This document shows, piece by piece, positions 3,792 through 30,903 of a stretch of DNA of 64,000 bases. The notes under the pieces were generated by a model. It did not search any database and was not told the origin of the DNA. It worked only from the letters and a program-made list of their open reading frames with translations. Origin of the DNA: Chloroflexota bacterium. GTDB lineage: Bacteria; Chloroflexota; Dehalococcoidia; SM23-28-2; RBG-16-64-32. The position numbers and the translations under genes are program-made. Position 1 is the first letter of the stretch; each line of letters begins with the position of its first letter. The DNA is taken from assembly GCA_029262695.1 (NCBI GenBank), contig JAJCYV010000022.1, positions 49,787-113,786 on the forward strand, in the 5' to 3' direction.

Positions 3792-4054
3792 ACGCGGTGC
3801 GAACCGGCGATGAGGAAGTTAAGCGCAGGAGCGCCGGGAGGATCGTGCTAAGGATCGTAATGAGGGTTGTGATGCCCTCGTTGATGCTTGGCTTCGCGGC
3901 GTACACGGTGGCAAACGGTGGACTCCAGGGTCTGGTTGCCCTGCTCCCCATTCTGGCCGCGCACGTCGTTGGCTTCCTCGTGATCTTTCCGCTTTGGGTC
4001 CGCTTCCGGCGAAGGCGCGTCGCCACTTCCGCCGCGGTGCCTGATGGCAACTGA
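3788..4054 (+). CDS. Small hydrophobic membrane protein (hypothetical), translationally coupled on both sides
   Basis: GTG start overlapping the radical-SAM stop (GTGA). The 88 aa product has two hydrophobic helices. Its 3' end overlaps the start of the next gene. Confidence 0.3.
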   Translation: MNAVRTGDEEVKRRSAGRIVLRIVMRVVMPSLMLGFAAYTVANGGLQGLVALLPILAAHVVGFLVIFPLWVRFRRRRVATSAAVPDGN

Positions 4055-4682
4055 GGCCACCAACCGGCGATCTCTCCTGAGGCCCGTTGGCATCGGCCTT
4101 GCGGCCCTTTTCATGGGGCTGCTCCTATTGGCAGGCGCCTGGATGCTCTGGATCTTCGTACTTCGTCCCCCGCCCGACGGTTTCGCCCCCACCACCGGTG
4201 AGGCCTCCGGCATCGATGACCAGCAGACAAGCGTGCTTCAGTACACGATCGACGCCAGGAGTCGAGAGGACTGGGTGTACTTCAGCTTCGAGGAGGGGAT
4301 GGTCATATCCACCTCACAGGACGCGCTGGACTGGGACCTGGCGGTCCGCCGCAACGACCTGCTCACCAACGGCGGCGAAAGCAACCCGCTGGGCATGGGT
4401 GGGGCCGTCGATCTGGGCAAAGTCACTCTTGCTGAGGCTGTGGCGCCCAGCGACGGCTTTCTGACAGACGAGACCCACGAAGACCGCGGGCTTGAAAACC
4501 CGGACTTGCACAAGTGGTACAACTACAACTGGACTACGCACATCATAACGAGCAAGGACCACACCTACGCTCTCCGAACACCGTCGGGTGAAGTGGCGCT
4601 GCTGACCTTTGTCTCCTACTACTGCGATGACGGATCATCGGGCTGTGTAACGTTCCAGTACCGCGGGCCCGAAGAGCGCTGA
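4044..4682 (+). CDS. HmuY-like (heme-binding-family) protein with N-terminal membrane anchor
   Basis: N-terminal TM helix (IGLAALFMGLLLLAGAWMLWIFVL). Core DWDLAVRRND...NGG resembles the HmuY-family W-D-x-A-F-R-N / NGG signature, and a Cys-containing C-terminus (YYCDDGSSGCVTF) follows. Confidence 0.4.
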   Translation: MATEATNRRSLLRPVGIGLAALFMGLLLLAGAWMLWIFVLRPPPDGFAPTTGEASGIDDQQTSVLQYTIDARSREDWVYFSFEEGMVISTSQDALDWDLAVRRNDLLTNGGESNPLGMGGAVDLGKVTLAEAVAPSDGFLTDETHEDRGLENPDLHKWYNYNWTTHIITSKDHTYALRTPSGEVALLTFVSYYCDDGSSGCVTFQYRGPEER

Positions 4683-4751
4683 GCGCTCGCTTCAGGACTC
4701 CCTCTCCGTATCTAGACACACCCGAACACAGGGCCCCACGGTCGGTAGGCT

Positions 4752-7874: not shown

Positions 7875-7924
7875 CGGGGCCGCAGCCACGATGGCACAAT
7901 CGGTTAATAGTGAGGAGAACAAGC

Positions 7925-10419: not shown

Positions 10420-10440
10420 GTTGAGATTGAGGAGGAAGTC

Positions 10441-11283: not shown

Positions 11284-11342
11284 GTAGCGGGGGGCAGCCT
11301 GAGCGAACCGCATCAATATTGAGCCCCTGCAGGCTGATCAGT

Positions 11343-11525: not shown

Positions 11526-11593
11526 CTGGGGCCTCCTCCGCCCTCACCAGGGCGATCACGGCTGAGAGTCAGCCGCGGGTCACGACAGAAGAA

Positions 11594-11621
11594 AGCCCCG
11601 GACGTGAAAACACCCGGGGCT
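11594..11621. terminator. Perfect 8-bp GC hairpin (AGCCCCGG-12 nt-CCGGGGCT) in the long intergenic region. It is terminator-like on the minus strand, where UUCUUCUGU follows it.
   Basis: Inverted repeat read directly from the sequence. Confidence 0.4.
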
Positions 11622-12069
11622 GATTGGATTCGAGGCGGCGCGCCGGAAAAAGTGACCGCAAACATGCGTCCTTCCCCTCCTTCGGTAGCCCGGCGGCCTT
11701 AGTCCCTTTCGGGCCCTTAGGTCCGTGGCTTTGCGTCCCGCCCTTTCAGACGGTTTGCCTTTATCGGGAGCGAAAGAGCATCGGCCTCTATCGCTCCGCG
11801 TTTGCTCCTGCTCGATGGCAGGCTGGCGACGGAGCCAGTCTACCATATTGCGATTATCCACAATGTGGAATGCCCCTGCCTAATCAAGGCTAACCCTAGC
11901 GGCTGGCACAGCAGTTGATGGAAAGGTTACAAAACTTGGCACTGGCGCTTAGAATGGGCACCAATCGGAAGGTCGGCGAAGCGGCCGCACCAAACCCGGC
12001 GACGCGTAGCGGTTGCGGTACAGCCTGTCTCAGTGCGGCCAGACGCCACGACGCAGTAAGAGAAATGCC

Positions 12070-15000
12070 ATGAACGAACAGGCTAGCAAACCCCCGGCCG
12101 GCGGTGGCCGGGTCTACCTGAAGCTGCTGGATCATCTTGCCGACAGCGCCTTCCTGGCGAATTCCAGCGGCAGACTCCTCTTCGCCAACGTGGCCACCTG
12201 CCAGAGTCTCGGCTATACGCGAGAGGAGCTTCGCTCGCTGTCCGTTCCAGACATCACCGACGACGGCGAGAGCAAGCTAAGGGAGGCGTTCACGGCTGTT
12301 GCGGCCGGTGAGCCGGTAACGGCTGAGGCCGTGCAGCGCCGGAAGGACGGCACGCCTGTCCCCGTAGAGCTGCGGCTTTCGCCGATTGAAATTGACGGTC
12401 GTCTGTGCCTGCTTGGGCTCGCCAGGGACATCACCAAGCGCAAGCAAGCCGAAGAGCAACTACGCCAGCACAGCGAACGCCTGGAGATACTGTTTGAGTA
12501 TGCGCCGGACGCCTACTATCTGAACGATCTCAACGGCAATTTCGTCGACGGGAATAGAGCTGCCGAAGAGCTGAGTGGATATAGCAGGGAAGAACTCATA
12601 GGGAAGAACTTCCTTGAGGTCGGCGTACTGCCTCAGGACCAGCTGCCGGTGGCAGCCGATCATTTGGCCAGCAGCAAACTTGGAGGGCACAGCGGCCCAC
12701 ACGAACTGATCTTGATCCGGAAGGACGGCACGCAGGTAAGCCTGGAGATAACCACGTACCCGACGACCATCGACGGGCGGCCCCTGGTCCTCGGCATCGC
12801 CCGCGATGTCACCGAGCGCAAGCTGGCGGAGGAAGAGCTGCGAAGGGCCCGCGATGAGCTGGAGTCGCGGGTGACGGAACGGACCGCCGACCTGGCAGCG
12901 GCCAATGAGCGGCTGCGAGAGGAGATCACCGAACGAGAGGAATCCCAGAAGGCGCTCCGGGAGAGCGAAGAGAAGCTCCGCACGCTGGCAGAGACGACGA
13001 CCGCGCTCATTTTCATCTTCCAGGGTCCACACCTGAAATACGCTAACCCGGCGGCGGAAGCCATCAGTGGATACTCCCGGAATGAATGGCAGTCGATGGA
13101 TCTCTGGGATCTCCTGCACCCGGATTTCCAGGACCTCGCGAGAGAGCGGCACGGGGCACGGCAACGGGGCGAAGACGTTCCGGCCCGGCACGAGGTCAAG
13201 ATGCTCACCAAGGACGGCGAGGAGCGGTGGCTGGATTACACCGCCGCGGGCGTTGAGCTTGAGGGAGAGGCCGCGATACTTGGAACGGCGTTCGATATCA
13301 CAGATAGAAAGCGAGCAGAGGAGGCGCTGCAACTATCAGAACAGAGACTGTCGGAGGCGCAGCGAATCGCCCGTGTTGGCAACTGGGACTGGGATATCGT
13401 CGCAGGCGAACTCTGGTGGTCCGACGAAGTCTACCGGATATTTGGCCTGAGCCGAGAGGAGTTCGGCGATACCTACGAGTCGTTCCTCGAATCCGTCCAC
13501 TCCGATGACCGTGACTTAGTACGCACCGCTGTCGACGCCGCCCTCTACGAGCGCAAGCCCTATAGCGTCGAACACCTCATCGTCCTCCCCAACGGCGATC
13601 AGAAGGCAGTGCATGAGCGAGCTGAGGTTACATTCGACGAAGATGGCCGGCCAGTCCGAATGGCCGGGACAGTGCTCGACATCACGGAGCGCAAGCGCGC
13701 GGAGGAGGCGCTGCGGGAGAGCGAGGAGAAGCTGCGATCGATTCTTGAGACGGTACCCGACATCGTAGCGACTGTGGCCGCCGACGGGACGCTGCTTTAC
13801 ACCAACCGCAGAGCGGCGGGGGGTGACGTGGACGAGATCATCGGGACGAGCGTCTTCGATCTGGTCGTGGACGAAGACCGGGACACAGTAAGGAAGGCAT
13901 TTCAACAGGCTGCAGAGACGGGCGAGAGAGCCAGCTACGAGGCCCGAGGGCGAGGCCCTGATGGTACGACTCCATGGTACGCGGTGCGCATCGCACCGCT
14001 GACGAGCGGCGGGGAGGTCGTCGCGGCCACTTTGGTCGCAACCGACATCACGGAGCGCAAGCAGGCCGAGGAGGCTCTGCAGGAGAGCGAGCGAAGGAAA
14101 GAGGCGCTGCTGGCTGCGATGCCAGACCTGATGTTCGTCATTGGCCGGGACGGAACATATCTCGACTACCATGCGCCTTCCTCCGATGAACTCTATGTGT
14201 CTCCCGATGAGTTTCTCGGCAAGACCGTCCGGGAGATCATGCCGAGAGAAGTCGCGGACCGCACTATGGAGAACATTGAGTTTGCTATCGAGAAGCGGAC
14301 GATACGCGCGTTCGAATACCAGCTCACGATTGGCGGTAAGACGTTGGACTTCGAGGCCCGCTACGTGCCCCACGGAGACGATCAGGCCCTTGCGATGGTC
14401 CGTAACATCACCGAGCGCAAGCAGGCGGAGGCCACCATCGAGCGCATGGCTTACCACGACGCGCTGACCGGGTTGCCCAACCGCGAACTGTTGAAGGACC
14501 GGCTTGACATCGCGCTCGCCCAGGCGCGTCGCGGCGGAAACATGGTCGCTGTCATGTACCTCGATCTCGACCGGTTCAAGAACGTCAACGACACGCTGGG
14601 ACATCCTGCGGGAGACAAGCTTCTGCACAGGATCGGTCGCCAACTATCGCGCCTGGTTCGAGATGGCGACACCGTCGCCAGAATCGGTGGTGATGAGTTC
14701 GTCATGCTGCTACCCACGATCGAGGATCCCGAAGACGCGGTCGGTGTGGCAGCCCGAACCCTCAAGCGCCTCAGCAGAAAGCGCACGCTGCTGGGACAGG
14801 AGATCGTCGTGACCGCCAGCATCGGCATTAGCCTGTATCCGCCAGACGGGGACAACGCGGAGGACCTGCTGTCGCACGCTGACACGGCCATGTACCGCGC
14901 CAAGGACCGTGGCAGGAACCAGTACCAGATCTACGATCCCGGCATGACCACCGACATTGAGAAACGGCTTGTCATGGAAGCCGAACTGAGGAGCGCGCTG

Positions 15001-15765
15001 GAGAACGACGAGATCGTGGCGTACTTCCAGCCCCAACTCGACGTTGCGACCGGGCGCCTGCTCGGGGCGGAGGCGCTCGCCCGCTGGCACCACCCCAGTC
15101 GCGGACTTGTGCTTCCCGGCGATTTCATCCAGGTAGCAGAAGAGACGGAGCTATCTCTGCTGCTTACCGAGCAGATGTTGAGATCAGCGGCGGCTCTGCA
15201 TGTTGAAATGAGAAACAAGGGCTTGCCTCCGATGCGGATGGCCGTCAACCTCGGACCCGCCGAACTTTACGAAAGCGCGCTGCCACAAGTTGTCGCAAGG
15301 ATTCTCGCCAAAGCCGGGATGGGGCCGGAGTATCTCCAGGTCGAGATAACTGAGCAGGGGGCGATGCGCGATCCCGATCTCGCGCTTCTTACACTGACTG
15401 ACCTGCGCTCACAGGGAGTGCAGATCGTTGTGGACGACTTCGGCACCGGCCACTCGTCCCTGAACTATCTTCGGCGCTTCCCCGCGAGTGTCGTGAAGGT
15501 GGACCGGTCCTTCATCCGCGACCTCGAAGACGACCCTGAGGATGCGGCGATCGTGTCGGCGATCATATCAATGGCGAAGAGCCTCAACCTGAGCGTCGTC
15601 GCCGAAGGAGTGGAGACGGAGGCGCAGCTCCAGTTTCTGAGAGAAAGGGGCTGCGACGAGTACCAGGGCTATCTGTTCAGCCCGGCCATTCCGGCACCTG
15701 AGTTCGAGGAGCTGCTGAAGACAAGCGCGACGGCTGCAAAGGCAAGCTCAAGAGGCGCTCCGTAG
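12070..15765 (+). CDS. Multi-PAS sensory diguanylate cyclase/phosphodiesterase (PAS x5-6, GGDEF, EAL)
   Basis: There are repeated PAS/PAC blocks, each followed by a conserved DITERK box, with coiled-coil linkers between them. A GGDEF active site (RIGGDEFVMLL) and an EAL domain (EALARWHHP...DDFGTGHSSL) follow. The start is ATG 12070, inside track ORF 12013..15765. Confidence 0.85.
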   Translation: MNEQASKPPAGGGRVYLKLLDHLADSAFLANSSGRLLFANVATCQSLGYTREELRSLSVPDITDDGESKLREAFTAVAAGEPVTAEAVQRRKDGTPVPVELRLSPIEIDGRLCLLGLARDITKRKQAEEQLRQHSERLEILFEYAPDAYYLNDLNGNFVDGNRAAEELSGYSREELIGKNFLEVGVLPQDQLPVAADHLASSKLGGHSGPHELILIRKDGTQVSLEITTYPTTIDGRPLVLGIARDVTERKLAEEELRRARDELESRVTERTADLAAANERLREEITEREESQKALRESEEKLRTLAETTTALIFIFQGPHLKYANPAAEAISGYSRNEWQSMDLWDLLHPDFQDLARERHGARQRGEDVPARHEVKMLTKDGEERWLDYTAAGVELEGEAAILGTAFDITDRKRAEEALQLSEQRLSEAQRIARVGNWDWDIVAGELWWSDEVYRIFGLSREEFGDTYESFLESVHSDDRDLVRTAVDAALYERKPYSVEHLIVLPNGDQKAVHERAEVTFDEDGRPVRMAGTVLDITERKRAEEALRESEEKLRSILETVPDIVATVAADGTLLYTNRRAAGGDVDEIIGTSVFDLVVDEDRDTVRKAFQQAAETGERASYEARGRGPDGTTPWYAVRIAPLTSGGEVVAATLVATDITERKQAEEALQESERRKEALLAAMPDLMFVIGRDGTYLDYHAPSSDELYVSPDEFLGKTVREIMPREVADRTMENIEFAIEKRTIRAFEYQLTIGGKTLDFEARYVPHGDDQALAMVRNITERKQAEATIERMAYHDALTGLPNRELLKDRLDIALAQARRGGNMVAVMYLDLDRFKNVNDTLGHPAGDKLLHRIGRQLSRLVRDGDTVARIGGDEFVMLLPTIEDPEDAVGVAARTLKRLSRKRTLLGQEIVVTASIGISLYPPDGDNAEDLLSHADTAMYRAKDRGRNQYQIYDPGMTTDIEKRLVMEAELRSALENDEIVAYFQPQLDVATGRLLGAEALARWHHPSRGLVLPGDFIQVAEETELSLLLTEQMLRSAAALHVEMRNKGLPPMRMAVNLGPAELYESALPQVVARILAKAGMGPEYLQVEITEQGAMRDPDLALLTLTDLRSQGVQIVVDDFGTGHSSLNYLRRFPASVVKVDRSFIRDLEDDPEDAAIVSAIISMAKSLNLSVVAEGVETEAQLQFLRERGCDEYQGYLFSPAIPAPEFEELLKTSATAAKASSRGAP

Positions 15766-15867: not shown

Positions 15868-17280
15868 ATGACTCAGATCCGACGCACCAAGATCGTAGCA
15901 ACGCTGGGTCCTGCGAGCGAAAGTCCGAAGGTCATTCGGGCGTTGGTCGATGCGGGCGTCGACGCCGTGAGGCTCAACTTCTCATACGGGGACCTCGAGA
16001 CACACGGTCGCTTGATCGAGGCCGTCAGAGAAGCGGCCGTCGCGGCGGGCAGGGATCTCGCGATCCTTCAAGACTTGCAGGGCCCGAAGATCCGCGTTGG
16101 GGACCTTCGGGCCGGCTCTGTGCGGCTGCGTTCTGGCGCCCGGATCCGCCTGACGTCGAAGCCCATCCAGGGCACGGCAACACGCGTCTCAACAACTTAC
16201 GATCACCTCGCTCAGGACGTGAGTTCAGGCGACCGGATCCTGCTCGACGACGGAGCCATTGAGTTGATCGTGGACAAAGTGTCGCGCGGCGAGGTCATCT
16301 GCGCGGTGGTACGCGGAGGCACCTTGAAGTCTGGAAAAGGAATGAACCTCCCGGGGATTCCGATCCGAACATCTGCGTTTACGGCGAAGGACCGTGGCGA
16401 CCTGCGGTTCGGGCTGGAGCGCGGAATAGACTCCGTTGCACTGAGCTTCACAAGGTCGGCGAAGGACGTGGAACCGGTGAGAAGGGTCATGCGCGATGTC
16501 GGCCGAAGCGTGCCCGTGCTGGCGAAGATTGAGAAGCCGCAGGCGCTTCGAAACCTTGATCGAGTGCTGCGTGCGTTCGACGGCGTGATGGTCGCGCGCG
16601 GTGACCTGGGGGTCGAGATAGGCCCCGAGAAGGTGCCGGCCGCTCAGAAGCGAATCATCGATAGGGCCAACGCCCTCGGCAAGCCGGTCATCACGGCAAC
16701 GCAGATGCTGGAGTCGATGACGAAGAACGCCAGGCCGACCCGCGCGGAGGCTTCAGACGTTGCGAACGCCGTTCTGGACGGGACGGACGCTGTGATGCTC
16801 AGTGGTGAGACGGCGACCGGTCGCTATCCTGAGGAGTCGGTACGTGTAATGGATCTGATCGTGCGGGAGGCCGAATCACTGGCGATGCCTAACGCTCCCC
16901 ACACCTCGGGAAAGACGACGCGCGGTCACTCCATTTGCCACGCGGCGGTTGGACTCGCGAACGAGGTTGCCGCCGCTGCGATAGTGACGCTTACTCGATC
17001 TGGAAGATCCGCACGCATCCTCTCCGCGCTCCGTCCCGGCGTCCCCATCTTTGCGCTATGCGAGCGAGGCGGCGTAGCAAGAAGCCTCGCGCTGTTCCGC
17101 GGCGTCGTCCCCGTATCTGTGGACGAACTGGGGCGAGCGGAAGATGTGATCGCTCGGATTCGGGGTCAGCTCATGAAGCGACGCCTCGTCGCAGCAGGGG
17201 AGGACGTCGTCGTCGTTGGGTTGGGGCGAGAGGGCTCCGCTCGCCAGGCTAATTTCATCCGCCTCCTGCGCGTTCACTGA
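15868..17280 (+). CDS. pyk: Pyruvate kinase
   Basis: RRTKIVATLGPAS N-terminus, the MVARGDLGVEI active-site signature, and 470 aa length. Confidence 0.9.
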   Translation: MTQIRRTKIVATLGPASESPKVIRALVDAGVDAVRLNFSYGDLETHGRLIEAVREAAVAAGRDLAILQDLQGPKIRVGDLRAGSVRLRSGARIRLTSKPIQGTATRVSTTYDHLAQDVSSGDRILLDDGAIELIVDKVSRGEVICAVVRGGTLKSGKGMNLPGIPIRTSAFTAKDRGDLRFGLERGIDSVALSFTRSAKDVEPVRRVMRDVGRSVPVLAKIEKPQALRNLDRVLRAFDGVMVARGDLGVEIGPEKVPAAQKRIIDRANALGKPVITATQMLESMTKNARPTRAEASDVANAVLDGTDAVMLSGETATGRYPEESVRVMDLIVREAESLAMPNAPHTSGKTTRGHSICHAAVGLANEVAAAAIVTLTRSGRSARILSALRPGVPIFALCERGGVARSLALFRGVVPVSVDELGRAEDVIARIRGQLMKRRLVAAGEDVVVVGLGREGSARQANFIRLLRVH

Positions 17281-17524
17281 CGCTTAGCTGACGAGGCTCG
17301 CCGCCCATATATCAATCCGCGAGTACGGCGAGATCGATGCCCCCGGCTTCTACGCTCTGAACTATCCGCCAATGACGTCGCTGGGGTTCCTGATGCTTCA
17401 CCTGGTCTTCGGCGCAATCGTCGGAGCGCTGTACGGCACCTGGGCTGGATAGCGACAAGGGTGATATGCAGCTGCTTCCTCGATCACCGCGTCTGCTCAA
17501 CCCGCGCTCGTACGAGAAGAAAGG

Positions 17525-17556
17525 CATAGGGGGGATGTCCGGACATCCCCCCTATG
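17525..17556. terminator. Perfect 30-bp palindrome (ATAGGGGGGATGTCC/GGACATCCCCCCTAT) between the convergent pyk and DOMON-like genes. It is a probable bidirectional terminator.
   Basis: 15-bp arms with no loop mismatch. It sits 245 bp after the pyk stop and 13 bp after the minus-strand stop at 17569. Confidence 0.5.
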
Positions 17557-17568: not shown

Positions 17569-18612
17569 CTACGCAGAGCGGGCCCGGACTCGCAGGTACA
17601 GAGACCCGAGTCCAACCACGACAGCCGCGCCGCCAAGGGCAAGAACCAGCATCAGCGCGGTAGACACGCCGCCATCGTCGCCGGGTGCGCCGCCTGTGGT
17701 CGGGACGCTGCCCGGGCTGGCGGTGGGTCCGGGTGTGGCTGTGTCCTGGGCAGCGCCCGGCAGGCTGGTGACGATCCATCCTGAGTCCGCACTTGTGAGG
17801 TGGCCGGTGTCCGTCCAGCCGGTCAGGCCCTCGTCAGCATCCCAGTAAGCCAGGGCGATCTTTGCAGTGCCACCAGCTACGAACTGGGCGTCCTCAATGT
17901 CGCCCGTCTGCAGCGGACGCGACATCTCGAAGGTCCAGGTGCCAGCCTCGCCGATCGTGGCACTCGTGTGGCTCCAGGACCCAGCGAGACTGTTTTCGGC
18001 ACCGGAGGCACTCGCGGTCTTGCCGTCGTCTTCGCGGGTCTCCGGATCAGTGGCGTACTCGTCGTCCATGTTGCAGTCCGGGTAGTTGCCGCTCCCGGCG
18101 TCGCCGCCACCGGACATCGCACCGGCGGCGCAGTCCAGCTCCCAGTGCCAGATGTCCACCATCCCCAGACCGGCCTCGAAGTCGCTATCGCCGGAGCCCA
18201 TGTGGGGGCCGGCAGCCGCGTCGATGAGGAACTGCACGGCGAGAGCCGCCGACATTTTGTGGTCATTGGGAGGGACAACACCATCGAAGTCGTAGTCGTC
18301 CGGCACCTCAACCAACACGTAGATGTTGGTGTCATCGGTAGCGACCTTGAGGGTCACGTCCACCGGGTCAAGCGGGCCGGGTGCGTCCCAGTCAACGCCG
18401 GCGGGGATCTCGAACTGTTTCAGGTTGACCGTGAGGCCGGTGATGGCCGCCCAATCGGCGCTGTTGCCGTCCACGGTGATCGTGGCGTCGGCCGCGTCCA
18501 GGCTCAGGTCTGCCTGGGCGGTGCCGCTGCCGACCATCAGGACCAGCGCAAGGGCCGCGGCGATCACGGCTCCCAGGCCTGCGGACCGAAGCGTACTTGT
18601 CCAGCTACTCAT
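17569..18612 (-). CDS. Secreted DOMON/EB_dh-like (CBM9-like fold) protein, paralog 1. Sec signal peptide and C-terminal TM anchor.
   Basis: Signal peptide (...GSGTAQA/DLSL). An ITVDG-x3-DW start, PHMG, MVDIWHWELDC, PDCNMDDE and GHLTSADSGWI blocks are shared with the two paralogs. C-terminus has a Pro/Thr linker and a hydrophobic anchor. GAGGAGG RBS. Confidence 0.55.
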   Translation of the reverse strand: MSSWTSTLRSAGLGAVIAAALALVLMVGSGTAQADLSLDAADATITVDGNSADWAAITGLTVNLKQFEIPAGVDWDAPGPLDPVDVTLKVATDDTNIYVLVEVPDDYDFDGVVPPNDHKMSAALAVQFLIDAAAGPHMGSGDSDFEAGLGMVDIWHWELDCAAGAMSGGGDAGSGNYPDCNMDDEYATDPETREDDGKTASASGAENSLAGSWSHTSATIGEAGTWTFEMSRPLQTGDIEDAQFVAGGTAKIALAYWDADEGLTGWTDTGHLTSADSGWIVTSLPGAAQDTATPGPTASPGSVPTTGGAPGDDGGVSTALMLVLALGGAAVVVGLGSLYLRVRARSA

Positions 18613-18715
18613 TTTGATTACCTCCTCTTTCGTACTTTTTCATGACGCGGGCAATATTGTGTCGCGTTGCTTATACCCTCCTTCTCCATGGTGGGTCAAC
18701 ATTCGGGGGGAAACT

Positions 18716-19681
18716 CTACGGGAGCCTCACCTCTATCCAGCCGCTTTCGGCACTCTGCAGGTGCCCGGTGTCCGTCCAGCCCTCCAGCGTTTCGTCCGGA
18801 TCGAAGTAGGCAAGCGCCATCAGCGCGGTGCCGCCGCTTTCGAACTGGGCATCCTCAGCGTCACCTGTCTGCAGGGGCCTTGACATCTCGAAAATCCAGA
18901 CGCCGACTGCATCCGGGCCGTCCGCGCTCGCAGTATGCGTCCAGACGCCAACCAGGCTATTCTCTGCATCGGCGTTGGCGGTGTCACCACCTCCATCATC
19001 CTCACGGTCTTCTGGATCAAGCGCGAACTCGTCGTCCAGGTTGCAGTCGGGGTCGTCGCCACTCCCGGGATCGCCCCCACCGGATGCAAGTCCGGCAGCG
19101 CAGTCCAGCTCCCAGTGCCAGATGTCGACCATCCCCAGGCCCAGCTCCAGGTCCTCATCCTCGGCACCCATGTGAGGCCCGGCGGCCGCATCGATGAGGA
19201 ACATCACGGCGAGCGAAGGAGAGAGGTTATGGTCGGCCGGGTCGAAGTCGTAGTCGTCGGGCACCTCCACCAACGCATAGAGGTTCCCACCGTCAGTGGC
19301 CATCTTCAGCGTGACATCGATGTCGTCGAGAGGCCCGGGCTCATCCCAATCCACGCCGGACGGGATCTCTATCTGTTCCATCGGCACGGTGACGCCCTCG
19401 ATATCACTCCAATCCGAACTGTCCCCGTCCACGGTGATCGTCGCTGTCGCGGCGTCGAGCGTGATCTCGTCACCATCACCCGCGTCGGTCGGTGCGGCCG
19501 TGGGAGCATCCGTGGGATCATCCGTGGGGGCATCCGTTGGTGCCGCCGTGGGCTCCGCCGTCGGTGACGCTCCGTCATCGTCGTCGCCGCCGCAGGCCAC
19601 GGCCACAAGCGCCAGCACTGCGAGCGCCGCCAGCAGAACAATCACTGCCTTCGCTCCTCTGCGGGTTAGTAGATTCATCAT
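18716..19681 (-). CDS. Secreted DOMON/EB_dh-like protein, paralog 2. N-terminal signal peptide or possible lipoprotein, with an acidic PT-rich linker.
   Basis: Start MMNLLTRRGAKAVIVLLAALAVLALVAVAC-GGDDDDG after an AAAGGAGA RBS. The track ORF 18716..19912 is over-extended. It has the same conserved blocks as paralogs 1 and 3 (PHMG, MVDIWHWELDCAAG, PDCNLDDE, GHLQSAESGWIEV). Confidence 0.55.
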   Translation of the reverse strand: MMNLLTRRGAKAVIVLLAALAVLALVAVACGGDDDDGASPTAEPTAAPTDAPTDDPTDAPTAAPTDAGDGDEITLDAATATITVDGDSSDWSDIEGVTVPMEQIEIPSGVDWDEPGPLDDIDVTLKMATDGGNLYALVEVPDDYDFDPADHNLSPSLAVMFLIDAAAGPHMGAEDEDLELGLGMVDIWHWELDCAAGLASGGGDPGSGDDPDCNLDDEFALDPEDREDDGGGDTANADAENSLVGVWTHTASADGPDAVGVWIFEMSRPLQTGDAEDAQFESGGTALMALAYFDPDETLEGWTDTGHLQSAESGWIEVRLP

Positions 19682-19748
19682 CTCCGGTCTCCTTTCATTT
19701 CTCCGGCGTGTGTGGCTGGCATCGTCACTCCGTTCAACATCCCTGGGC

Positions 19749-20216
19749 TCAGTCGGAGCCCTCCTGCCCGATAGCCTCCAGGAACGCGAACAGTCGTTCG
19801 GCTTCTTCGTCACTAAGGGTCTCTTCAACAAATGCAGGCATCCCTTTCGGGCCCTTACGCACTTCCTGCAAGAACTCCGAGAGATTGAAGTCGGACGCAT
19901 CAATGTCTCCACCCACCGTCGCGCCCTGGCCCGTCAGGCCGTGGCAGCTCGCGCAGTTGTTTGCGAAGAACAGGATTCGCCCGTCGGTGAGGGGGTCGCC
20001 GGTCGTATGGTCCGGATCAGCGAGGGATAGGCCTTCGAATGATGCGGGCTCGCCAAGCGTGGCGAGTTCGGTCCGGTCGTAGCCCTCGGGTTCGAGGTTG
20101 TGGTGCGTATACGGGCTGCGGGCGATAATCACGCCGATGAGCGTGAACGCGAGGGCACTCATCACGATGGCGCCCATGATTGGGCCCGGCGGCACCGAGC
20201 GTCTAACGACACGCAT
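19749..20216 (-). CDS. Membrane-anchored mono-heme class I c-type cytochrome
   Basis: N-terminal TM helix, a single CASCH heme-binding site, and a downstream GMPAF Met-ligand region. The start codon overlaps the upstream stop. Confidence 0.75.
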   Translation of the reverse strand: MRVVRRSVPPGPIMGAIVMSALAFTLIGVIIARSPYTHHNLEPEGYDRTELATLGEPASFEGLSLADPDHTTGDPLTDGRILFFANNCASCHGLTGQGATVGGDIDASDFNLSEFLQEVRKGPKGMPAFVEETLSDEEAERLFAFLEAIGQEGSD

Positions 20217-21766
20217 CAGTCATCGTCCTCCAGGTGGCCTGGCTCCGAGAGCCTGTCGTCTCTGTCCAGCGAACCGCTCTCTGAGAGCCTGTCGTCCCTA
20301 TCCAGGATGCCGGCGCCAGAGAGCCTCGCTTCTTCGTCCAACCGGCCGGGGCCGCGGAAGTCAACCCTATCAGCCTCCTCGGGGACACCGGTCGCGCGCG
20401 CGATGGCGATGACGCGGACGGCGATAGTGATCAAGACCACCCACACAGTCGTTGCCACGGCGATGATGATCCAGACGCCAAGCCCCGGGATGTCGACTCC
20501 CGCCTCTGACCGGTATATCTGACCCCCTTCCGCAACCACCAGGGACTGCGAAGCGGCGACCGGCTCAGCCGCTTCCGGCAGCAGATACTCGATCACGAGG
20601 TCCTGATCGCCGGCGCGACGTGGCACGAAGTCCATCTCTGCCCGGCCGTCGTCGTCCGTAGTCGCGGCCGCCACCTCGACCATCCCGGTGACGCCCGCGA
20701 AGGTCACCTCACGGAGGATCCGCACTTGCACGCCGGCAACCGGTGACCCGTCCGTCGTGGACGTGAGCGTCACTAGGACGTCTGCCAGATCACCCACGCG
20801 TGGATCGGCCGATACGGTGATCTCTGCTTTCCCGTCAGAGTCACCGCCCGCGGGTGGCGCTATGGTGGGCGTGGGCGAGGTCGCGCCTCCCGGAGTGGGA
20901 GTCGCCGCCGGTGGCTGGGTGGCATCAGGGCCCGGTATCAGCACTTCGATCCAGCCCTCGCCGGCGCTGGTGAGATGTCCTGCGTCAGACCACCCGATGG
21001 CACTCTCGTCGGCGTCGAAGTAAGCGAGGGCGAGGAAGGCGGAGGTATTCTGTGCGAACTGGGCGTCCTCAGGATCGCCGGTCTGCAGCGGACGCGACAG
21101 CTCGAAGATCCAGGCGCCGTCGGCACCGGCACCACCGGCGCGGCCAGTGTGGTCCCAGGCGCCGGTCAGGCTGTTCTCAGCGTTCGGGTTCGCGTCGGGG
21201 CCGCCGCCATCGTCATCGCGTTCCTCAGGTTCGGTACTGAACTCGTCGTCCAGGTTGCAGTCGGGGTCATCGCCGCTGCCAGGGGCGCCTCCTCCGGCGC
21301 TTTCACCGGGGCCGCAGTCGAGTTCCCAGTGCCAGAGGTCAACCATGCCCAGGCTCTGCTCGAAGTCCTGGTCGCCTGAACCCATGTGCGGGCCCGCTGC
21401 CTGCTCGATCCGGAACATGGCGTTGGGCGAGCCCGAGAGTTTGCCGTCGTTGGGATCATAGTCGTAGTCGTCGAAGACTTTGATCAGAAAGTAGATGCGT
21501 TCGCTGTCCGCGGCGGCCTTTACCTCTGCTTGAACCGCGTCCAGGGAATCGTATTCCCAGTCGGAGCCCTGCGGTATCTCGAACTGGGCGAGCGTCAGCG
21601 TCAGACCGTCGATCCCGGCCCAGTCGGAGTCGTCCCCATCGACCGTAATGGTCGCGGCGGCCGCCGGGAGCGAGAGGTCGGCGCGAGCCGGGTCTGCTTC
21701 AGCGCCGAGTGACAGCACGACCGCGGCCAGAGCGACGGCCAGCAGGGAGATGCCCCAGGAGCGCAT
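20216..21766 (-). CDS. Secreted DOMON/EB_dh-like protein, paralog 3. It adds an Ig-like/CarboxypepD_reg-like domain, a TM helix and a repetitive acidic cytoplasmic tail.
   Basis: Signal peptide, the same PHMG / MVDLWHWELDC / PDCNLDDE / GHLTSAGEGWIEV blocks, a beta-sandwich-like segment (VRILREVTFAGVTGMVEVAAATTDDDGRAEM), a TM helix (VWIIIAVATTVWVVLITIAV), and a tail with repeated DRDDRLSE units. ATGA overlap with the NrfD stop. Confidence 0.55.
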   Translation of the reverse strand: MRSWGISLLAVALAAVVLSLGAEADPARADLSLPAAAATITVDGDDSDWAGIDGLTLTLAQFEIPQGSDWEYDSLDAVQAEVKAAADSERIYFLIKVFDDYDYDPNDGKLSGSPNAMFRIEQAAGPHMGSGDQDFEQSLGMVDLWHWELDCGPGESAGGGAPGSGDDPDCNLDDEFSTEPEERDDDGGGPDANPNAENSLTGAWDHTGRAGGAGADGAWIFELSRPLQTGDPEDAQFAQNTSAFLALAYFDADESAIGWSDAGHLTSAGEGWIEVLIPGPDATQPPAATPTPGGATSPTPTIAPPAGGDSDGKAEITVSADPRVGDLADVLVTLTSTTDGSPVAGVQVRILREVTFAGVTGMVEVAAATTDDDGRAEMDFVPRRAGDQDLVIEYLLPEAAEPVAASQSLVVAEGGQIYRSEAGVDIPGLGVWIIIAVATTVWVVLITIAVRVIAIARATGVPEEADRVDFRGPGRLDEEARLSGAGILDRDDRLSESGSLDRDDRLSEPGHLEDDD

Positions 21767-23127
21767 CAGTTCGCACCTCCGGCTGGCTCAGCAGCGGCGC
21801 CGGGCGGGGGCGCGGGAGCGGCAGACGCCAGAGATAGCTCGTAGTCCTCCTCAACCTCCCAGTGCGCCATGATGGGGAAGATCTTGACGAATATCGAGAT
21901 GAGTAACGCGAAGAGGGCGAACCCGGCCGCCATGATGGAGAACTCCACCCAGCTCGGACTGTAGCTGGAGGGTTCGTAGGGCATGAGCGGCACGCGCAGG
22001 CCGGTGACGACGATGAAGTAGCGCTCGACCCACATCCCGGCGTCAACGAAGACGGCCGCAACGAGAATGCCCCAGAAGTTCCGTGTCCACGGTAAAAGAA
22101 TGATGAGCCCCGGCAGGACAAGACCGCCGAGCATATAGAACCAGTAGAAACCGGCGTACTCCTCCCTGAACAGCTGGTTGAAGTGAAACTCCACGCCCTC
22201 TTCCAGCTTGTAGCCGGTCGTCAGGAACTCCGAGATATTGGCGTAGATCATGATCAGAGCGAAGGCTCCCATCATGTAGCCCAGGTAGATGAAGTGCTTC
22301 TCGTGGATGTACTCCTCCAGGTGGTAAATCTTGCGGAGGATCGCCATGACGATAATCAGCGTGGCGATGCCGGAGAAGATCGCCCCTGCCACGAAGAAGG
22401 CGCCGAAGATCGTGCTGTTCCACGGCTCTCGCAGCGTCATGCCGAAGATCCACGAGACGACGGTGTGGACGGAGACGGCGATCGGCAGGATCAGGAGCAT
22501 GGCCACGGTCATGGCGGAGCCCAGGTTCCGCTTCTGAGCGGCGTTGCCCACCCATCCGACTGCGAGGATGCTGTAGAGCCGGAGACGCCAGGCCGAAACG
22601 CGCCCGGCCAGCCTGTCACGGAGAAACGCCATGTCGGGGATCATCGGCAGGAACAGATAGGCGATGCTCCCCGTCAGGTAGGTCGTTACGGCCAGCACGT
22701 CCCAGACGATCGGTGACTGCCAGCGGCCGTAGAGGATGATGTTGAAGAGGCGATCCACCCGGCCCATGTCCACGATGACGAAGATGGCGCCGCACGAGAG
22801 CGCGACCACCGTAATGAATTCCGCCAGGCGGGTTATCGGCGTCCGCCAACGCGCTTGAGTTATGCGCAGTATGGCCGAAATCAACGTGCCGGCGTGACTG
22901 ATGCCGATGAAGAAGACGAACGTGGAGATGTAAAGGCCCCAGGAGATGCGATCGCGCATGTCGGTGACGATGAGGCCATCGTTGAGCTGCCCGTAGAAAG
23001 CGTATACACCCCAGCCGATCACCACCAGGAGAAAGGCGATCCACAGATAGTAGATTCGGCTGGTGTTGAGGAGCGGAGCCGTGATCGTGTGCTCCAGCCG
23101 CTGGCGCCAGGAGCTCATCTCCTCCAC
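21766..23127 (-). CDS. NrfD/PsrC-family polytopic membrane subunit (quinone-interacting)
   Basis: 453 aa with about 10 predicted TM helices and NrfD-like composition. It is translationally coupled to the FeS subunit upstream and the DOMON-like gene downstream. Confidence 0.6.
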   Translation of the reverse strand: MEEMSSWRQRLEHTITAPLLNTSRIYYLWIAFLLVVIGWGVYAFYGQLNDGLIVTDMRDRISWGLYISTFVFFIGISHAGTLISAILRITQARWRTPITRLAEFITVVALSCGAIFVIVDMGRVDRLFNIILYGRWQSPIVWDVLAVTTYLTGSIAYLFLPMIPDMAFLRDRLAGRVSAWRLRLYSILAVGWVGNAAQKRNLGSAMTVAMLLILPIAVSVHTVVSWIFGMTLREPWNSTIFGAFFVAGAIFSGIATLIIVMAILRKIYHLEEYIHEKHFIYLGYMMGAFALIMIYANISEFLTTGYKLEEGVEFHFNQLFREEYAGFYWFYMLGGLVLPGLIILLPWTRNFWGILVAAVFVDAGMWVERYFIVVTGLRVPLMPYEPSSYSPSWVEFSIMAAGFALFALLISIFVKIFPIMAHWEVEEDYELSLASAAPAPPPGAAAEPAGGAN

Positions 23128-24110
23128 GTCTTCGCCCCCTTAACCCGCTCGACCCACGGCCACTCGGTGGGCAAGCGCCCCTCGTCCGCTGTGTCGCGGC
23201 CGACGGCTTCCCCGTGGCCAGGGATGTAGTACACGCGTGGCTTCGTGCCCTTGTCTTCCTTCAGGCGGTAGGCCTGATTCTCGGAGAGGAACCGGGACGC
23301 GGCGACTATCTCCTTGCCGTTCGTGGCGACGTCGTCCTCAAGGTCTCCGTAGTAGATGGCGTCGTTGGGGCAGGCTTGAATGCAGAACGGCAGCGTCCCC
23401 GCACGGACCATGTCCGGGCAGAAGTCGCACTTCATGACAGTGCCCTTCTTTGCAGGCACCTGGTGCTCAGGCGAGTAGTCGGCGAGCAGCGCCTCCGGCG
23501 GGACCGGCGGGTCACCCCAGTTGAAGAAGCGTCGGTCGTAGGGGCAGGCCGCCATGCAGATCCGGCAACCGATGCAGCGGTCCTGGTCGATGAGCACCGT
23601 CCCCTCGGGCGTCGAGAACGTGGCCGCCACGGGGCAGACGTTGACGCACGGCGGGTTCTGGCACTGCTGGCACGGCGTGGGGATGAACTGAGTGCCGCCT
23701 CCCGGCAACTCGTGCTCAAAGATCTGAATCCACTCCATGGGCTCGGGCGCGAAGTGACCTTCGACGCAGGCGGTCGTGCACTGGGGCGGCGTGCCCTGGC
23801 TCTGGCAGCCGTCGCAGGAGCGGAGGTCGATGATCATCGTCCACTGCCGGATGCGGCCGCCGGGCCCCTTGGCAGGCTCTCCTTGCGATTCCACGACGCG
23901 TCCGGCGTCTGACGCCTTCTGCAGGACCGGGGGCAGGAGGATTAGGGGCGCAGCGCCTGCCGCGGCCATGCCGAAGAGTCTCAGCACGCCGCGCCGGCTT
24001 ACCTTCGGCGGCTGGGTCGGCTCCCCGGGCCTGTCGTCTCGGTCGCTTGCGCCTGAGCCGCCATCGTTCTTGCCCATCATCTTCTTCTCCACCTTTAGCT
24101 CACGCTTCAC
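23115..24110 (-). CDS. Tat-exported 4x[4Fe-4S] ferredoxin-type subunit (PsrB/NrfC/DmsB-like). Alternative starts lie at 24080 and 24077.
   Basis: Twin-arginine signal SRRGVLRLFGMAAAGAAP. Four Cys clusters (CDGC...C, CQQCQNPPCVNVCP, CIGCRICMAACP, CDFC...CIQACP). Confidence 0.75.
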   Translation of the reverse strand: MKRELKVEKKMMGKNDGGSGASDRDDRPGEPTQPPKVSRRGVLRLFGMAAAGAAPLILLPPVLQKASDAGRVVESQGEPAKGPGGRIRQWTMIIDLRSCDGCQSQGTPPQCTTACVEGHFAPEPMEWIQIFEHELPGGGTQFIPTPCQQCQNPPCVNVCPVAATFSTPEGTVLIDQDRCIGCRICMAACPYDRRFFNWGDPPVPPEALLADYSPEHQVPAKKGTVMKCDFCPDMVRAGTLPFCIQACPNDAIYYGDLEDDVATNGKEIVAASRFLSENQAYRLKEDKGTKPRVYYIPGHGEAVGRDTADEGRLPTEWPWVERVKGAKTWRR

Positions 24111-24303
24111 AAAGAAGCGCCTTTAGTCCGCTCTCACTATGCTCACCGGGCAGAACCTGGGGCATCGGTCGATCAGGCAGACCGGGAACCTCCGCTTTGC
24201 GCGGAATGCGTAGGCCAGAATGCGGAGGAAATTCCCCGCGCTGATTAGGCGGATCACGCGCCGGGCGGGACGAGGCCTGAGATACGTTTGAACCCGGCCT
24301 GAA

Positions 24304-24331
24304 GAAGGAGATTAGCTATAATGTCCACACA
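24304..24331 (+). promoter_or_regulatory. Divergent promoter region with a TATAAT box at 24317-24322, a GAAGAAGGAG RBS, and an 18-codon W-rich uORF beginning at ATG 24321
   Basis: TATAAT hexamer read directly from the sequence. The uORF encodes MSTQWQIRNRWWGQFASS and overlaps the response-regulator start. Two AATGCG direct repeats lie about 60 bp further upstream. Confidence 0.3.
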
Positions 24332-25030
24332 GTGGCAGATAAGAAACCGGTGGTGGGGACAATTCGCGTCATCATAGCGGAAGACCACGCCGTCGTGCGT
24401 GAAGGCACGCGCGAGCTCCTCGAACGAGAGAAGGACATCGAAGTCATCGGCGAGGCAGCTGACGGTGCCGAAGCCGTAGCGCTGGTCGATAAGCTCCGTC
24501 CGGACGTCGCCATCGTCGACATCTCTATGCCCGGCATGGGTGGCATAGAAGCGACGCAGAAGATTAAGGCGCTGCGCCCCTCGACAGCCGTGTTGATTCT
24601 CACCGCTTACGATGATGACCAGTACGTATTCGCGCTCCTTGGTGCCGGCGCCGCAGGGTACCTCCTTAAGGACGTGCCGTCTGCAGAGGTCGTGCGGGCC
24701 GTCAGGGCTGTGCATGCCGGGGAGCCGGTGCTCCATCCGGCCATAGCGAAGAAGGTCCTCGCCAAGATCGCGTCGGAAGCGACGAACGACGAGCCTCCCC
24801 CGCAGGCATCCAGGACGGTACTTACGGACCGCGAGCGCAACGTTCTGCGCCTGGCCGCCTGCGGAATGAGCAACGCCAGCATCGCAAGCCGGCTAAGCAT
24901 CAGCCTGCGTACTGTCCAATCACACCTGTCTCACACATTCGACAAGCTGGGGGTCGGTTCCAGAACCGAGGCCGTAATAGTCGGTCTTCGTCGCGGATTC
25001 CTCGAACTCGGTGATCTGGATGAAAGCTGA
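24332..25030 (+). CDS. NarL/LuxR-family response regulator
   Basis: REC domain (IRVIIAEDH...VAIVDISMPGMGG) plus a C-terminal LuxR HTH (RERNVLRLAACGMSNASIASRLSISLRTVQSH). GTG start. GTG 24350 is an alternative start. Confidence 0.85.
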   Translation: MADKKPVVGTIRVIIAEDHAVVREGTRELLEREKDIEVIGEAADGAEAVALVDKLRPDVAIVDISMPGMGGIEATQKIKALRPSTAVLILTAYDDDQYVFALLGAGAAGYLLKDVPSAEVVRAVRAVHAGEPVLHPAIAKKVLAKIASEATNDEPPPQASRTVLTDRERNVLRLAACGMSNASIASRLSISLRTVQSHLSHTFDKLGVGSRTEAVIVGLRRGFLELGDLDES

Positions 25031-26570
25031 AGCGAGGACAGCACCGGCAACCCGGCCGTCGCCGACAGCACGCGGTCTGTGGCTCCGGATTTCCAGACCC
25101 TTCCGCGCATTACCCCAGAGGATCCGAGAGCCGCGCTTCTGGCAGGTTCAGGCGCTGGTCGTGCTGGCCACCGCACCCCACTACATCATCGAGTCCAGCG
25201 AAGACTTTGCCAGGTTCGAGAGCTGGGGGCTTCACAGTCTGGCTATCAGCCTGTATATCCTTCCGCTCCTGTATGCGGCACTGAACTACAGATGGGAGGG
25301 GGCTCTTCTGACCGGCCTGTGGGCCGCCGCGCTCGTGTCTCCCAGCATCTGGTACTGGGACCGCGGCGAATCACACTATCTGACCGAGATAGGGCAGTTG
25401 TTGGTCACACTTCCAATCGGCCTGCTCGTAGCGTGGCGCGTCGACATTGAGGCAAGGCAACGGCGCCGGGCCGAACAGACCAGCGCCAGCTTGAGCCTAC
25501 TGAACCAGACTGGTGAGGCGCTCAGCCACACTCTGGAAGCAGAAGAACAGGTGCCTCTGGTCCTGCGCAAGCTGCTTTCGGATCTCCCCCTCGATTCCAC
25601 CTGGCTCTGCCTGGCGTCCGATTCCCAGGGCGAGCTGCGGGTCATTGCCGAACTCTCCGATGAAGGCGGCCGCGTGCCCGCGGGAATGCCGCAGGAGCGA
25701 CACGGGCGCATCGAAGACGCGCTGGCGACTCAGGTCGAGGAGGGATACGTAACGGTACCACTGCTCACGAAGGATGGGCTAGTCGGTTCTCTCGGAGCGG
25801 CCATGTCCGGTGGGGAAGACCCTACGGACGAACAGATTGAGGTGCTGACAACTGTCGCGCGGCAACTCTGCGCGGCCGTCGTCAACGCACGCCTTTACCG
25901 TGAAAGACAGGAGAGCCTGCAGTCCTACGTCAGGCACGTAACGGAGGCGCAGGAGGAAGAGCGTCTGCGCATCGCCCGGGAGCTTCACGACGAGACCGCC
26001 CAGGAGCTGATCCAACTCGTGCGCGGCCTGGAGCAGATCGACGATGGTTCCGACGACACGAGAGCGCAAGGCGTTGACGATCTAATCAAGGCAACACGAG
26101 AGACGATTCGATCGGTGCGGCGCTTCAGCCGTGACCTCAGGCCATCGGTGCTCGACGATCTCGGCCTGCTGGCCGCGATCGAGGTGATTGTGGAGGATAC
26201 CGATTCGAGACTTCCCGGGGGCGCCACGCTGCGCGTGAGTGGAAAGGCAGAGCGGGTAGCGGAGGCAGTTGAGCTGGCGTTGTTCCGCATCGCTCAGGAA
26301 TCCCTGAGAAACGTTGAGAAGCACGCCGGGGCGACGTCCGCAGCGGTCGCGCTCGACTTTGAGCCCGGCGCCATCAAACTTTCGATCTCCGATGATGGCG
26401 ATGGCTTCAACGTCTCGAACGTCTCCGATCTGGCCCGTGCTGGAAAGCTCGGACTGGTGGGCATGAAAGAGCGCTGTGAGCTGGTGGGTGGCTCGTTTGA
26501 CGTATATTCGAACCCTAAAAAGGGCACCCGCATCGTGGTCACAGTCGGCGGCAGCCAGCGAGACCTCTAG
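25011..26570 (+). CDS. Membrane sensor histidine kinase with GAF and HisKA_3/HATPase domains (NarX/DegS type)
   Basis: N-terminal TM helices, a GAF-like region, the H-box ELHDETAQELIQL (HisKA_3), and an HATPase (GLVGMKERCELVGG). It overlaps the response-regulator gene's 3' end. Confidence 0.8.
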   Translation: MIWMKAEARTAPATRPSPTARGLWLRISRPFRALPQRIREPRFWQVQALVVLATAPHYIIESSEDFARFESWGLHSLAISLYILPLLYAALNYRWEGALLTGLWAAALVSPSIWYWDRGESHYLTEIGQLLVTLPIGLLVAWRVDIEARQRRRAEQTSASLSLLNQTGEALSHTLEAEEQVPLVLRKLLSDLPLDSTWLCLASDSQGELRVIAELSDEGGRVPAGMPQERHGRIEDALATQVEEGYVTVPLLTKDGLVGSLGAAMSGGEDPTDEQIEVLTTVARQLCAAVVNARLYRERQESLQSYVRHVTEAQEEERLRIARELHDETAQELIQLVRGLEQIDDGSDDTRAQGVDDLIKATRETIRSVRRFSRDLRPSVLDDLGLLAAIEVIVEDTDSRLPGGATLRVSGKAERVAEAVELALFRIAQESLRNVEKHAGATSAAVALDFEPGAIKLSISDDGDGFNVSNVSDLARAGKLGLVGMKERCELVGGSFDVYSNPKKGTRIVVTVGGSQRDL

Positions 26571-30902: not shown

Positions 30903-30903
30903 G

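Follow-up and report, generated by a model that had tools for sequence, protein, structure and literature searches.

Organisation of the locus

The 64,000-nucleotide stretch of Chloroflexota DNA analysed here (the window; contig JAJCYV010000022.1 of assembly GCA_029262695.1, positions 49,787 to 113,786 of the forward strand) carries on its minus strand, at 17569-24110, a six-gene operon that would link a quinol-oxidising membrane module to three exported domains of the EB_dh family. A preliminary description had recognised in it a set of six open reading frames (ORFs) for an iron-sulfur (FeS) protein exported by the twin-arginine translocation (Tat) pathway, an NrfD-type membrane subunit, a mono-haem cytochrome c and three secreted paralogs resembling the haem-b-binding gamma subunits of ethylbenzene dehydrogenase. 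The coordinates of the six ORFs and all of the domain assignments stand (Table 1). Gene overlaps had been proposed throughout, and were present at the first three junctions (13, 1 and 1 nt) but not at the others, where gaps of 67 nt (cytochrome c to paralog 2) and 103 nt (paralog 2 to paralog 1) were found. The open frame of paralog 2 extends over 18716-19912, and its start was assigned to the ATG at 19681, which has an AGGAG ribosome-binding site upstream. The operon ends in a strong terminator hairpin directly after paralog 1. An exact-sequence look-up of the window's own proteins returned no recorded match.

Table 1. Coordinates of the operon, its flanking regulators and associated genes in the window
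Feature	Position	Strand	Details
EB_dh paralog 1	17569..18612	-	347 aa
EB_dh paralog 2	18716..19681	-	321 aa; PF09459 57 bits + PT repeat
Membrane-anchored mono-haem class I cytochrome c	19749..20216	-	155 aa; PF13442 50 bits
EB_dh paralog 3, whole ORF (EB_dh–X fusion)	20216..21766	-	516 aa
EB_dh paralog 3, N-terminal half (Sec signal + EB_dh)	20927..21766	-	PF09459 48.9 bits
Subunit X portion of paralog 3 ORF	20216..20926	-	matches free-standing ~190-aa proteins
ActC-like NrfD-family membrane subunit	21766..23127	-	453 aa
Tat-exported four-cluster FeS protein	23115..24110	-	331 aa
Divergent control region, operon versus regulator genes	24111..24331		motif TACGCATTCCGCGC at 24199-24212
NarL/GerE-type response regulator	24332..25030	+	Response_reg + GerE
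Histidine kinase	25011..26570	+	HisKA_3 + HATPase
Intrinsic terminator hairpin	17525..17556	-	14-bp stem + T-rich tail
Membrane-anchored HmuY-like protein	4044..4682	+	PF14064, 62.5 bits
Orphan EbdA-like type II DMSO-reductase alpha	58469-61267	+	932 aa; TIGR03479 865 bits; EbdA model 778

The EB_dh paralogs and their candidate haem ligands

In hidden Markov model searches the three paralogs, which had at first been likened to EB_dh, DOMON and CBM9 domains alike, scored as EB_dh. All exceeded the Pfam gathering threshold of 33.3 bits (PF09459; 48.9, 57.3 and 56.3 bits), whereas CBM9_1 gave weak matches (E 0.0015-0.036) under its threshold of 23.4 bits. The model for type II DMSO reductase gamma subunits (TIGR03477, cut-off 169.85) gave 16.2 and 28.4 bits for two of the paralogs and no match for paralog 2. 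The three share 53-66% protein identity and ~72-75% DNA identity. Paralog 1 has a Sec signal and is anchored by a C-terminal transmembrane segment, which a Pro/Gly/Thr linker joins to the EB_dh domain; paralog 2 comprises a lipoprotein signal (LVAVA-C), a Pro/Thr-rich linker of ~40 residues and the EB_dh domain. The EB_dh domains are very acidic, with an isoelectric point (pI) of ~4.05 and 46-61 aspartate and glutamate residues per ~250. Among 1.84 billion representatives at 50% identity, 301 matched at E <= 1e-3 and 68 at E <= 1e-30; the paralogs form a small and distinct family.

Blocks around PHMG, MVD[IL]WHWELDC and PDCN[LM]DDE had been singled out as strictly conserved, and ITVDG-x3-DW as a fold signature. 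The motifs ITVDG-x3-DW, GPHMG, MVD[IL]WHWELDC and PDCN[LM]DDE are invariant in the three copies and in 42 homologs, but of the supposedly conserved blocks only Met138 and His271 persist across the wider family. An AlphaFold2 model of paralog 1, made with a 42-sequence alignment, had a predicted local distance difference test (pLDDT) score of 75 and a predicted template modelling (pTM) score of 0.70. The sole PDB sequence match of an EB_dh paralog was NxrC (E 3.9e-9), in which haem b is ligated by Met155 and Lys305, "as in EBDH" (ethylbenzene dehydrogenase; PMC8387239). By hhalign (96.5% probability), Met138 of the PHMG motif falls on the axial methionine of canonical gamma subunits (NxrC Met155, EbdC Met108); all 42 sequences have it, and divergent family representatives retain it. 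At the axial lysine position (NxrC Lys305, EbdC Lys201) the same alignment places Thr273, which is threonine or glutamine in the family. In that loop, two residues before Thr273, is the invariant His271, which also persists in divergent representatives. Ligand positions covary in canonical gamma subunits from metagenome loci, xMG occurring with G[ILM]K (Met plus Lys) and leucine with arginine.

Because Met138 and His271 persist at haem-ligand positions while the neighbouring His137 varies, Met138 and His271 are proposed as the axial ligands of haem b. His137 of the PHMG motif was rejected as a ligand, being replaced by G, Q, D, A, R or F in divergent relatives. A copper-site reading of the histidine and methionine motifs was likewise rejected: methionine is not enriched in the domains, and the conserved pair occupies haem-ligand positions. 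Met/His ligation of haem is the pattern of the cytochrome domain of cellobiose dehydrogenase (CDH).

The operon's EB_dh domains differ from the gamma subunits EbdC, NxrC, SerC and DdhC in being free-standing, membrane-tethered and not encoded with alpha, beta and delta subunits, in having the invariant histidine two residues upstream of a position that lacks the axial lysine, and in bearing an extra acidic, disulfide-bearing insert. They would resemble the CDH cytochrome domain and plant CYBDOM proteins in placing an extracellular beta-sandwich haem-b domain between a second redox module and an external acceptor.

An ActC-like quinol module

The FeS protein carries a twin-arginine motif (SRRGVLRLFG) and 16 cysteines in four ferredoxin-type cluster motifs of four cysteines each, and it matches Pfam Fer4_11 with 69 bits. 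DsrO and DsrP ranked first among NCBIfam models for the FeS protein and the NrfD subunit, both below cut-off (168 bits against 200 and 137.6 bits against 350, respectively). The best PDB matches of the FeS protein were PsrB (2vpw_B, 8e-28), ArrB and the C-terminal four-cluster half of ActB, to which it aligns only at residues ~796-994. Its score of 65 bits on the type II beta model TIGR03478, against a cut-off of 481, indicates that it is not a type II beta subunit.

The NrfD subunit (PF03916, 108 bits) matched only subunits of alternative complex III (ACIII) in the PDB at E <= 0.01. Its top four matches were ActC from four organisms (6f0k_C, 6lod_C, 6btm_C and 8k9e_C), the best being that of Rhodothermus (6f0k_C; E 3.5e-58, 34% identity over residues 29-426 of 453), and the fifth was a weak match to ActF (6f0k_F, E 5.5e-4). 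PsrC was absent from the matches at this threshold. The quinol-site residues of ActC were taken from Calisto and Pereira (PMC8076601) and mapped onto the subunit: Ser164 and Asp169 are kept (as Ser138 and Asp143), His139 is replaced by Asp120, and Asp253 by Ile227. Aspartate at the His139 position also occurs in DsrP and QrcD, and three of the four positions are compatible. The membrane subunit is a clear ActC homolog, not a generic PsrC or NrfD, and is presumed to hold the menaquinol site.

The preliminary description had assumed that FeS and NrfD subunits normally serve a molybdenum (Mo) subunit. This premise proved too broad, for NrfCD, DsrOP, Qrc and ACIII are described as functioning without an active Mo site (PMC8076601). 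Since such Mo-free pairs are well known and the membrane subunit is an ActC homolog, the absence of Mo is in itself unsurprising. The module is best described as a stripped ACIII-type core, made up of ActC, a stand-alone four-cluster protein and a mono-haem cytochrome c.

With ACIII it shares an ActC homolog, an FeS protein similar to the C-terminal half of ActB and a membrane part without redox cofactors; it also contains a small single-pass subunit and a cytochrome c with a single haem. Unlike ACIII, the operon lacks the penta-haem ActA, the Mo-like ActB1 domain and ActF, the second NrfD-like subunit (it contains one CxxCH motif and one NrfD gene), and its FeS protein is a stand-alone 331-aa Tat substrate that is not fused to a molybdopterin-like domain. 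Further differences are the aspartate and isoleucine at the ActC His139 and Asp253 positions, and one to four EB_dh domains in place of the periplasmic multi-haem part. NrfCD, DsrOP (in DsrMKJOP), HmcBC and QrcCD resemble the module in combining an NrfD-type subunit with an FeS protein that has its own Tat signal, and in passing electrons between quinone and periplasmic cytochromes c, as is proposed here. The operon's proteins, however, score under the DsrO and DsrP cut-offs; DsrMKJ, NrfAB and a multi-haem partner are lacking, and the partner is a haem-b-type domain.

Cytochrome c and subunit X

The cytochrome c has an N-terminal transmembrane anchor, a single CASCH motif and a GMPAF methionine ligand. 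Its PDB matches were QcrC and CcoP domains, the best being the second haem domain of actinobacterial QcrC, and not the mono-haem ActE. Fusions of cytochrome c with EB_dh were found in five database proteins (P0101, P0103, P0113, P0115 and P0119).

Beyond its EB_dh domain, paralog 3 continues with a linker, an immunoglobulin (Ig)-like domain, an IPGLGVW motif, a transmembrane helix and an acidic cytoplasmic tail. Most loci with FeS and NrfD genes (at least 11) encode, between NrfD and cytochrome c, a free-standing protein of ~190 aa with a signal peptide, an Ig-like domain, an IPGxNxW motif and one transmembrane helix, designated subunit X. Residues ~310-465 of paralog 3 match this protein. Because its C-terminal 200 residues correspond to free-standing X, paralog 3 is a fusion of EB_dh with a separate conserved subunit. 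X contains no conserved Cys, His or Met and was rejected as a cofactor carrier. Genes for a CcdA-type protein (DsbD_TM) and a ResA-like redoxin, accessories of cytochrome c maturation, lie 6 kb from the operon (30252-31854, minus strand).

Conservation of the gene cluster

Thirty-eight loci, designated here by L numbers, were examined in a neighbourhood comparison, and the ORFs of 36 were clustered all against all. Members of the EB_dh paralog family came exclusively from uncultured bacteria: Chloroflexota, with the labels Dehalococcoidia, Limnocylindria or Anaerolineae, and Actinomycetota, all Acidimicrobiia. The samples were of groundwater, soil, sediment, hydrothermal and marine origin. FeS and NrfD genes lie beside EB_dh in ~22 of the 38 loci, usually with divergent or adjacent genes for a HisKA_3 kinase and a GerE-type regulator. 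The recurrent order is the two-component system, then FeS–NrfD–X–cytochrome c–EB_dh, often followed by an HmuY-like gene. The order seen in the window is thus repeated in ~22 loci from metagenome-assembled genomes (MAGs) of two phyla. Clustering of the 36 loci yielded only known parts and HmuY as further recurrent neighbours, and no oxidase, reductase or transporter.

In five Acidimicrobiia loci a GltD-like flavoprotein and an operon for cytochrome b, Rieske and cytochrome c proteins take the place of FeS/NrfD. Because this bc-type operon replaces FeS/NrfD, what EB_dh constantly accompanies is a quinol:cytochrome c oxidoreductase, of one type or the other, which it contacts through cytochrome c, and not a beta subunit. 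The pattern fits an exchange of electrons between haem c and an EB_dh cofactor, and not docking of EB_dh on a beta subunit. These Rieske/cytochrome b loci, together with the cytochrome c–EB_dh fusions, strengthen the original suggestion of a quinol-linked route to haem-b domains outside the cytoplasm. The architecture had been put forward as one not recognised among described systems, and full-text literature searches gave no description of it; neither the list of NrfD-containing complexes in the abstract of the 2021 NrfD review (PMC8076601) nor the passages of it that were consulted mention an EB_dh partner.

EB_dh domains also occur in tandem, with two in Acidimicrobiia proteins and four in one Chloroflexota protein. 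The four-domain protein (1136 aa; L020 8078-11485, plus strand) has 72-76% DNA identity between its copies, and its gene is preceded by those for FeS, NrfD and X and by one that fuses cytochrome c to EB_dh. In L001 (10211-10510 / 10952-11251) and L004 (10204-10503 / 10954-11253) the paired EB_dh domains are 100% identical in DNA, with a period of 741-750 nt. These are independent Acidimicrobiia assemblies whose proteins differ between the organisms, and the identity points to concerted evolution, a very recent duplication or an assembly effect. In L022 (±10 kb around 9800-10714), on a contig labelled Gammaproteobacteria, EB_dh and HmuY-like genes occur without FeS, NrfD, cytochrome c or regulators.

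Regulators and the HmuY-like protein

The response regulator gene adjoins the cluster in ~24 related loci, and the kinase gene is also conserved beside it. Inspected by eye, the N-terminus of the kinase has about four closely spaced transmembrane helices and a GAF-like stretch. Because of these four helices and the lack of a large external domain, the kinase is suggested to sense a membrane or redox signal. The operator-like motif of the control region is present, as TACGYATTNNNCGC, in the equivalent intergenic region of L005, L013 and L014, making four loci with the window. Its site in the control region is the only exact one in the window; sites with one mismatch are intragenic and at chance level, and the window therefore gave no sign of a wider regulon.

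The HmuY-like gene of the window lies 13 kb from the operon, and its product is 64% identical to those of cluster-adjacent genes of L117, L120 and L006, of which it is an unlinked ortholog. In ten loci an HmuY-like gene directly follows EB_dh. At 374-4682 on the plus strand of the window are hemA (the glutamyl-tRNA reductase gene or a fragment of it) and AhbC/NirJ1-like and AhbD-like radical-SAM genes, followed by the HmuY-like gene, a group that is likely to be a haem operon. The HmuY-like protein is tied to the handling of haem b because its gene directly follows hemA and the AhbC/AhbD-type genes, and it probably supplies or handles haem b outside the cell. HmuY-family proteins bind haem in Bacteroidota.

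Genes for molybdoenzyme subunits

The absence of a catalytic Mo subunit, as first reported, holds for the operon itself and for the surrounding 10 kb in 29 of 32 genome loci. It does not extend to the whole window, which encodes an orphan type II alpha subunit, or to three lineages in which an alpha gene adjoins the cluster. The orphan alpha, 34 kb from the operon, has an FS0 motif and no Tat signal; it is flanked by genes for an acyl-CoA dehydrogenase and a short-chain dehydrogenase/reductase (SDR), with no beta, gamma or delta genes nearby. Its closest metagenome relatives are also lone alphas, and more distant ones lie in tandem arrays with type II beta and weak gamma subunits. In L064, L076, L084, L095, L108 and L114, canonical gamma-like subunits encoded next to alpha and beta in Chloroflexota-type arrays apparently lack signal peptides and fall into Met plus Lys and Leu plus Arg classes at the haem-ligand positions, which suggests that these arrays encode cytoplasmic type II enzymes, some with haem-free gamma subunits.

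Proposed function and alternative explanations

On balance, and with moderate confidence, the cluster is interpreted as a Mo-free respiratory module under two-component control, which monoderm Chloroflexota and Actinomycetota would carry on the outside of their cytoplasmic membrane. Signals and anchors put every redox domain outside the membrane. Menaquinol would be oxidised by the ActC-like subunit, and electrons would travel along the four [4Fe-4S] clusters that the Tat-exported FeS protein carries to the membrane-anchored mono-haem cytochrome c, and from there to haem b in the EB_dh domains, with Met138 and His271 as the proposed ligands. One EB_dh domain would be fixed to the complex through its fusion with subunit X, while paralogs 1 and 2 would sit on flexible tethers, anchored by a C-terminal helix and a lipid, respectively. 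The tethered domains may act as swinging carriers, or as a short "wire" through the monoderm wall to an outside partner. We infer both the direction of electron flow and the existence of that partner; an external donor could also feed electrons back along the chain to quinone.

Several points weigh against this interpretation. The canonical axial lysine is missing from the EB_dh paralogs, and haem binding by these domains, like the ligand pair, is something that we infer. A simple carrier would not need multiple EB_dh copies. All loci come from uncultured MAGs, and the conserved cluster encodes neither an acceptor nor a donor; the terminal function proposed is a guess. In addition, type II alpha genes lie beside the cluster in three lineages, as well as 34 kb away in the window. 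In L013 and L117, which share 99.9% DNA identity and count as one lineage, a 67%-identical alpha lies by the kinase gene, in the order response regulator–histidine kinase–MarR–alpha–acyl-CoA dehydrogenase. Coverage of the L117 organism is about 30-35x in ERZ13693046, ERZ13693047 and ERZ13693099. In L061/L062 a 55%-identical alpha is convergent to EB_dh. In L006 a complete type II operon (4313-11834, minus strand) lies just beyond HmuY and convergent to the EB_dh cluster, encoding a 1158-aa alpha with a Tat signal, beta, a delta chaperone, a C-terminally anchored gamma with Met/Lys ligands and a 335-aa polytopic membrane protein.

These alpha genes raise the alternative that the cluster provides the anchor and the electron-transfer subunits for a molybdoenzyme, with the alpha encoded elsewhere (candidate 58469-61267). 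A signal-less alpha would then leave the cytoplasm as a passenger of the FeS protein and its Tat signal, with the EB_dh domains as gamma subunits. FeS, NrfD and alpha together would form a normal Psr/Dms-type architecture, PsrB is the best PDB match of the FeS protein, and the alpha of the window, like its nearest relatives, stands alone with no beta or gamma nearby. We nevertheless regard this explanation as unlikely. The orphan alphas have no Tat signal, whereas the redox proteins of the cluster are all exported, and the FeS protein falls far below the type II beta cut-off. Most genome loci (29 of 32) have no alpha within 10 kb, and the cluster was present in only one of 80 alpha-centred loci; alphas are numerous in these metagenomes and occur in tandem arrays, so that chance could yield roughly the adjacency seen. 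The L006 enzyme already has its own anchored gamma, the EB_dh proteins of Acidimicrobiia go with a bc complex in loci from which an exported FeS protein is altogether absent, and the association of alpha with acyl-CoA dehydrogenase genes in the window and L117 suggests a cytoplasmic role.

The recurrence of HmuY-like genes after EB_dh, in a family whose Bacteroidota members bind haem, and the lone EB_dh and HmuY pair of L022 would also be consistent with haem or iron acquisition at the surface, in which EB_dh binds external haem or reduces Fe(III), in the manner of plant CYBDOM ferric reductases, and the quinol module supplies reducing power for uptake or release. L120 encodes an Nramp divalent-metal transporter (15943-17286, plus strand) four genes beyond its HmuY-like gene, the EB_dh domains are strongly acidic, and eukaryotic DOMON haem-b proteins act as ferric reductases in the apoplast (PMC10784552). 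Yet the Nramp link is confined to a single locus, and the cluster contains no conserved transporter, haem oxygenase or iron regulator. In the window the HmuY-like gene lies with genes of haem synthesis, not of uptake, and an energy-conserving ActC-type module would be heavy machinery for the flux of nutrient uptake; this role, too, is unlikely. It is very improbable that the paralogs are haem-free CBM9-type modules that bind cell-wall or environmental polysaccharide, in a redox neighbourhood that is structural or coincidental. The weak CBM9 matches and the missing axial lysine would agree with such a role, but it is EB_dh and not CBM9 that passes its Pfam cut-off, the axial methionine is conserved with an invariant histidine in the lysine loop, five proteins fuse cytochrome c to EB_dh, and EB_dh keeps strict synteny with two unrelated types of quinol:cytochrome c module.

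Each part of the proposed respiratory module comes from a known family, and Mo-free NrfD/FeS modules are established, so that the system does not amount to a new category. Its novelty lies in how the parts are combined: a quinol module, ACIII-derived or bc-type, goes with gamma-subunit-like domains that stand free, occur in multiple copies and are tethered to the membrane, and with a regulator pair of its own and an HmuY-like accessory, a combination conserved across two phyla. A broader generalisation is possible but doubtful: free-standing EB_dh/DOMON proteins may be an unrecognised class of surface electron carriers, duplicated or tandem-repeated and tethered by Pro/Thr linkers, that do the job of multi-haem cytochromes c between the menaquinone pool (through an ACIII-derived or bc-type module) and extracellular acceptors or donors such as iron, manganese, humics or partner enzymes.

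Groundwater, soil, sediment and the ocean harbour abundant Dehalococcoidia, Limnocylindria and Acidimicrobiia, almost none of which have been cultured, and the ends of their respiratory chains are largely guesswork. The cluster would be a regulated respiratory branch that standard annotation misses; NCBI labels its pieces "NrfD/PsrC family molybdoenzyme membrane anchor" and "ethylbenzene dehydrogenase-related protein". If the proposed module is real, the haem-b gamma-subunit fold exists independently of molybdoenzymes, the core of ACIII can be reduced to ActC and a four-cluster protein, and the eukaryotic design of a membrane donor with a DOMON haem b has a bacterial counterpart. The analysis yields two hypotheses, Met/His-ligated haem b in the EB_dh domains and an electron path from quinol through cytochrome c to haem b.

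Other features of the window

A c-di-GMP-I riboswitch aptamer at 11681-11769 on the minus strand scored 82 bits, well over its gathering score of 35. The divergent gene at 12013-15765 on the plus strand, which has the aptamer immediately upstream, encodes a 1250-aa multi-PAS GGDEF-EAL protein.

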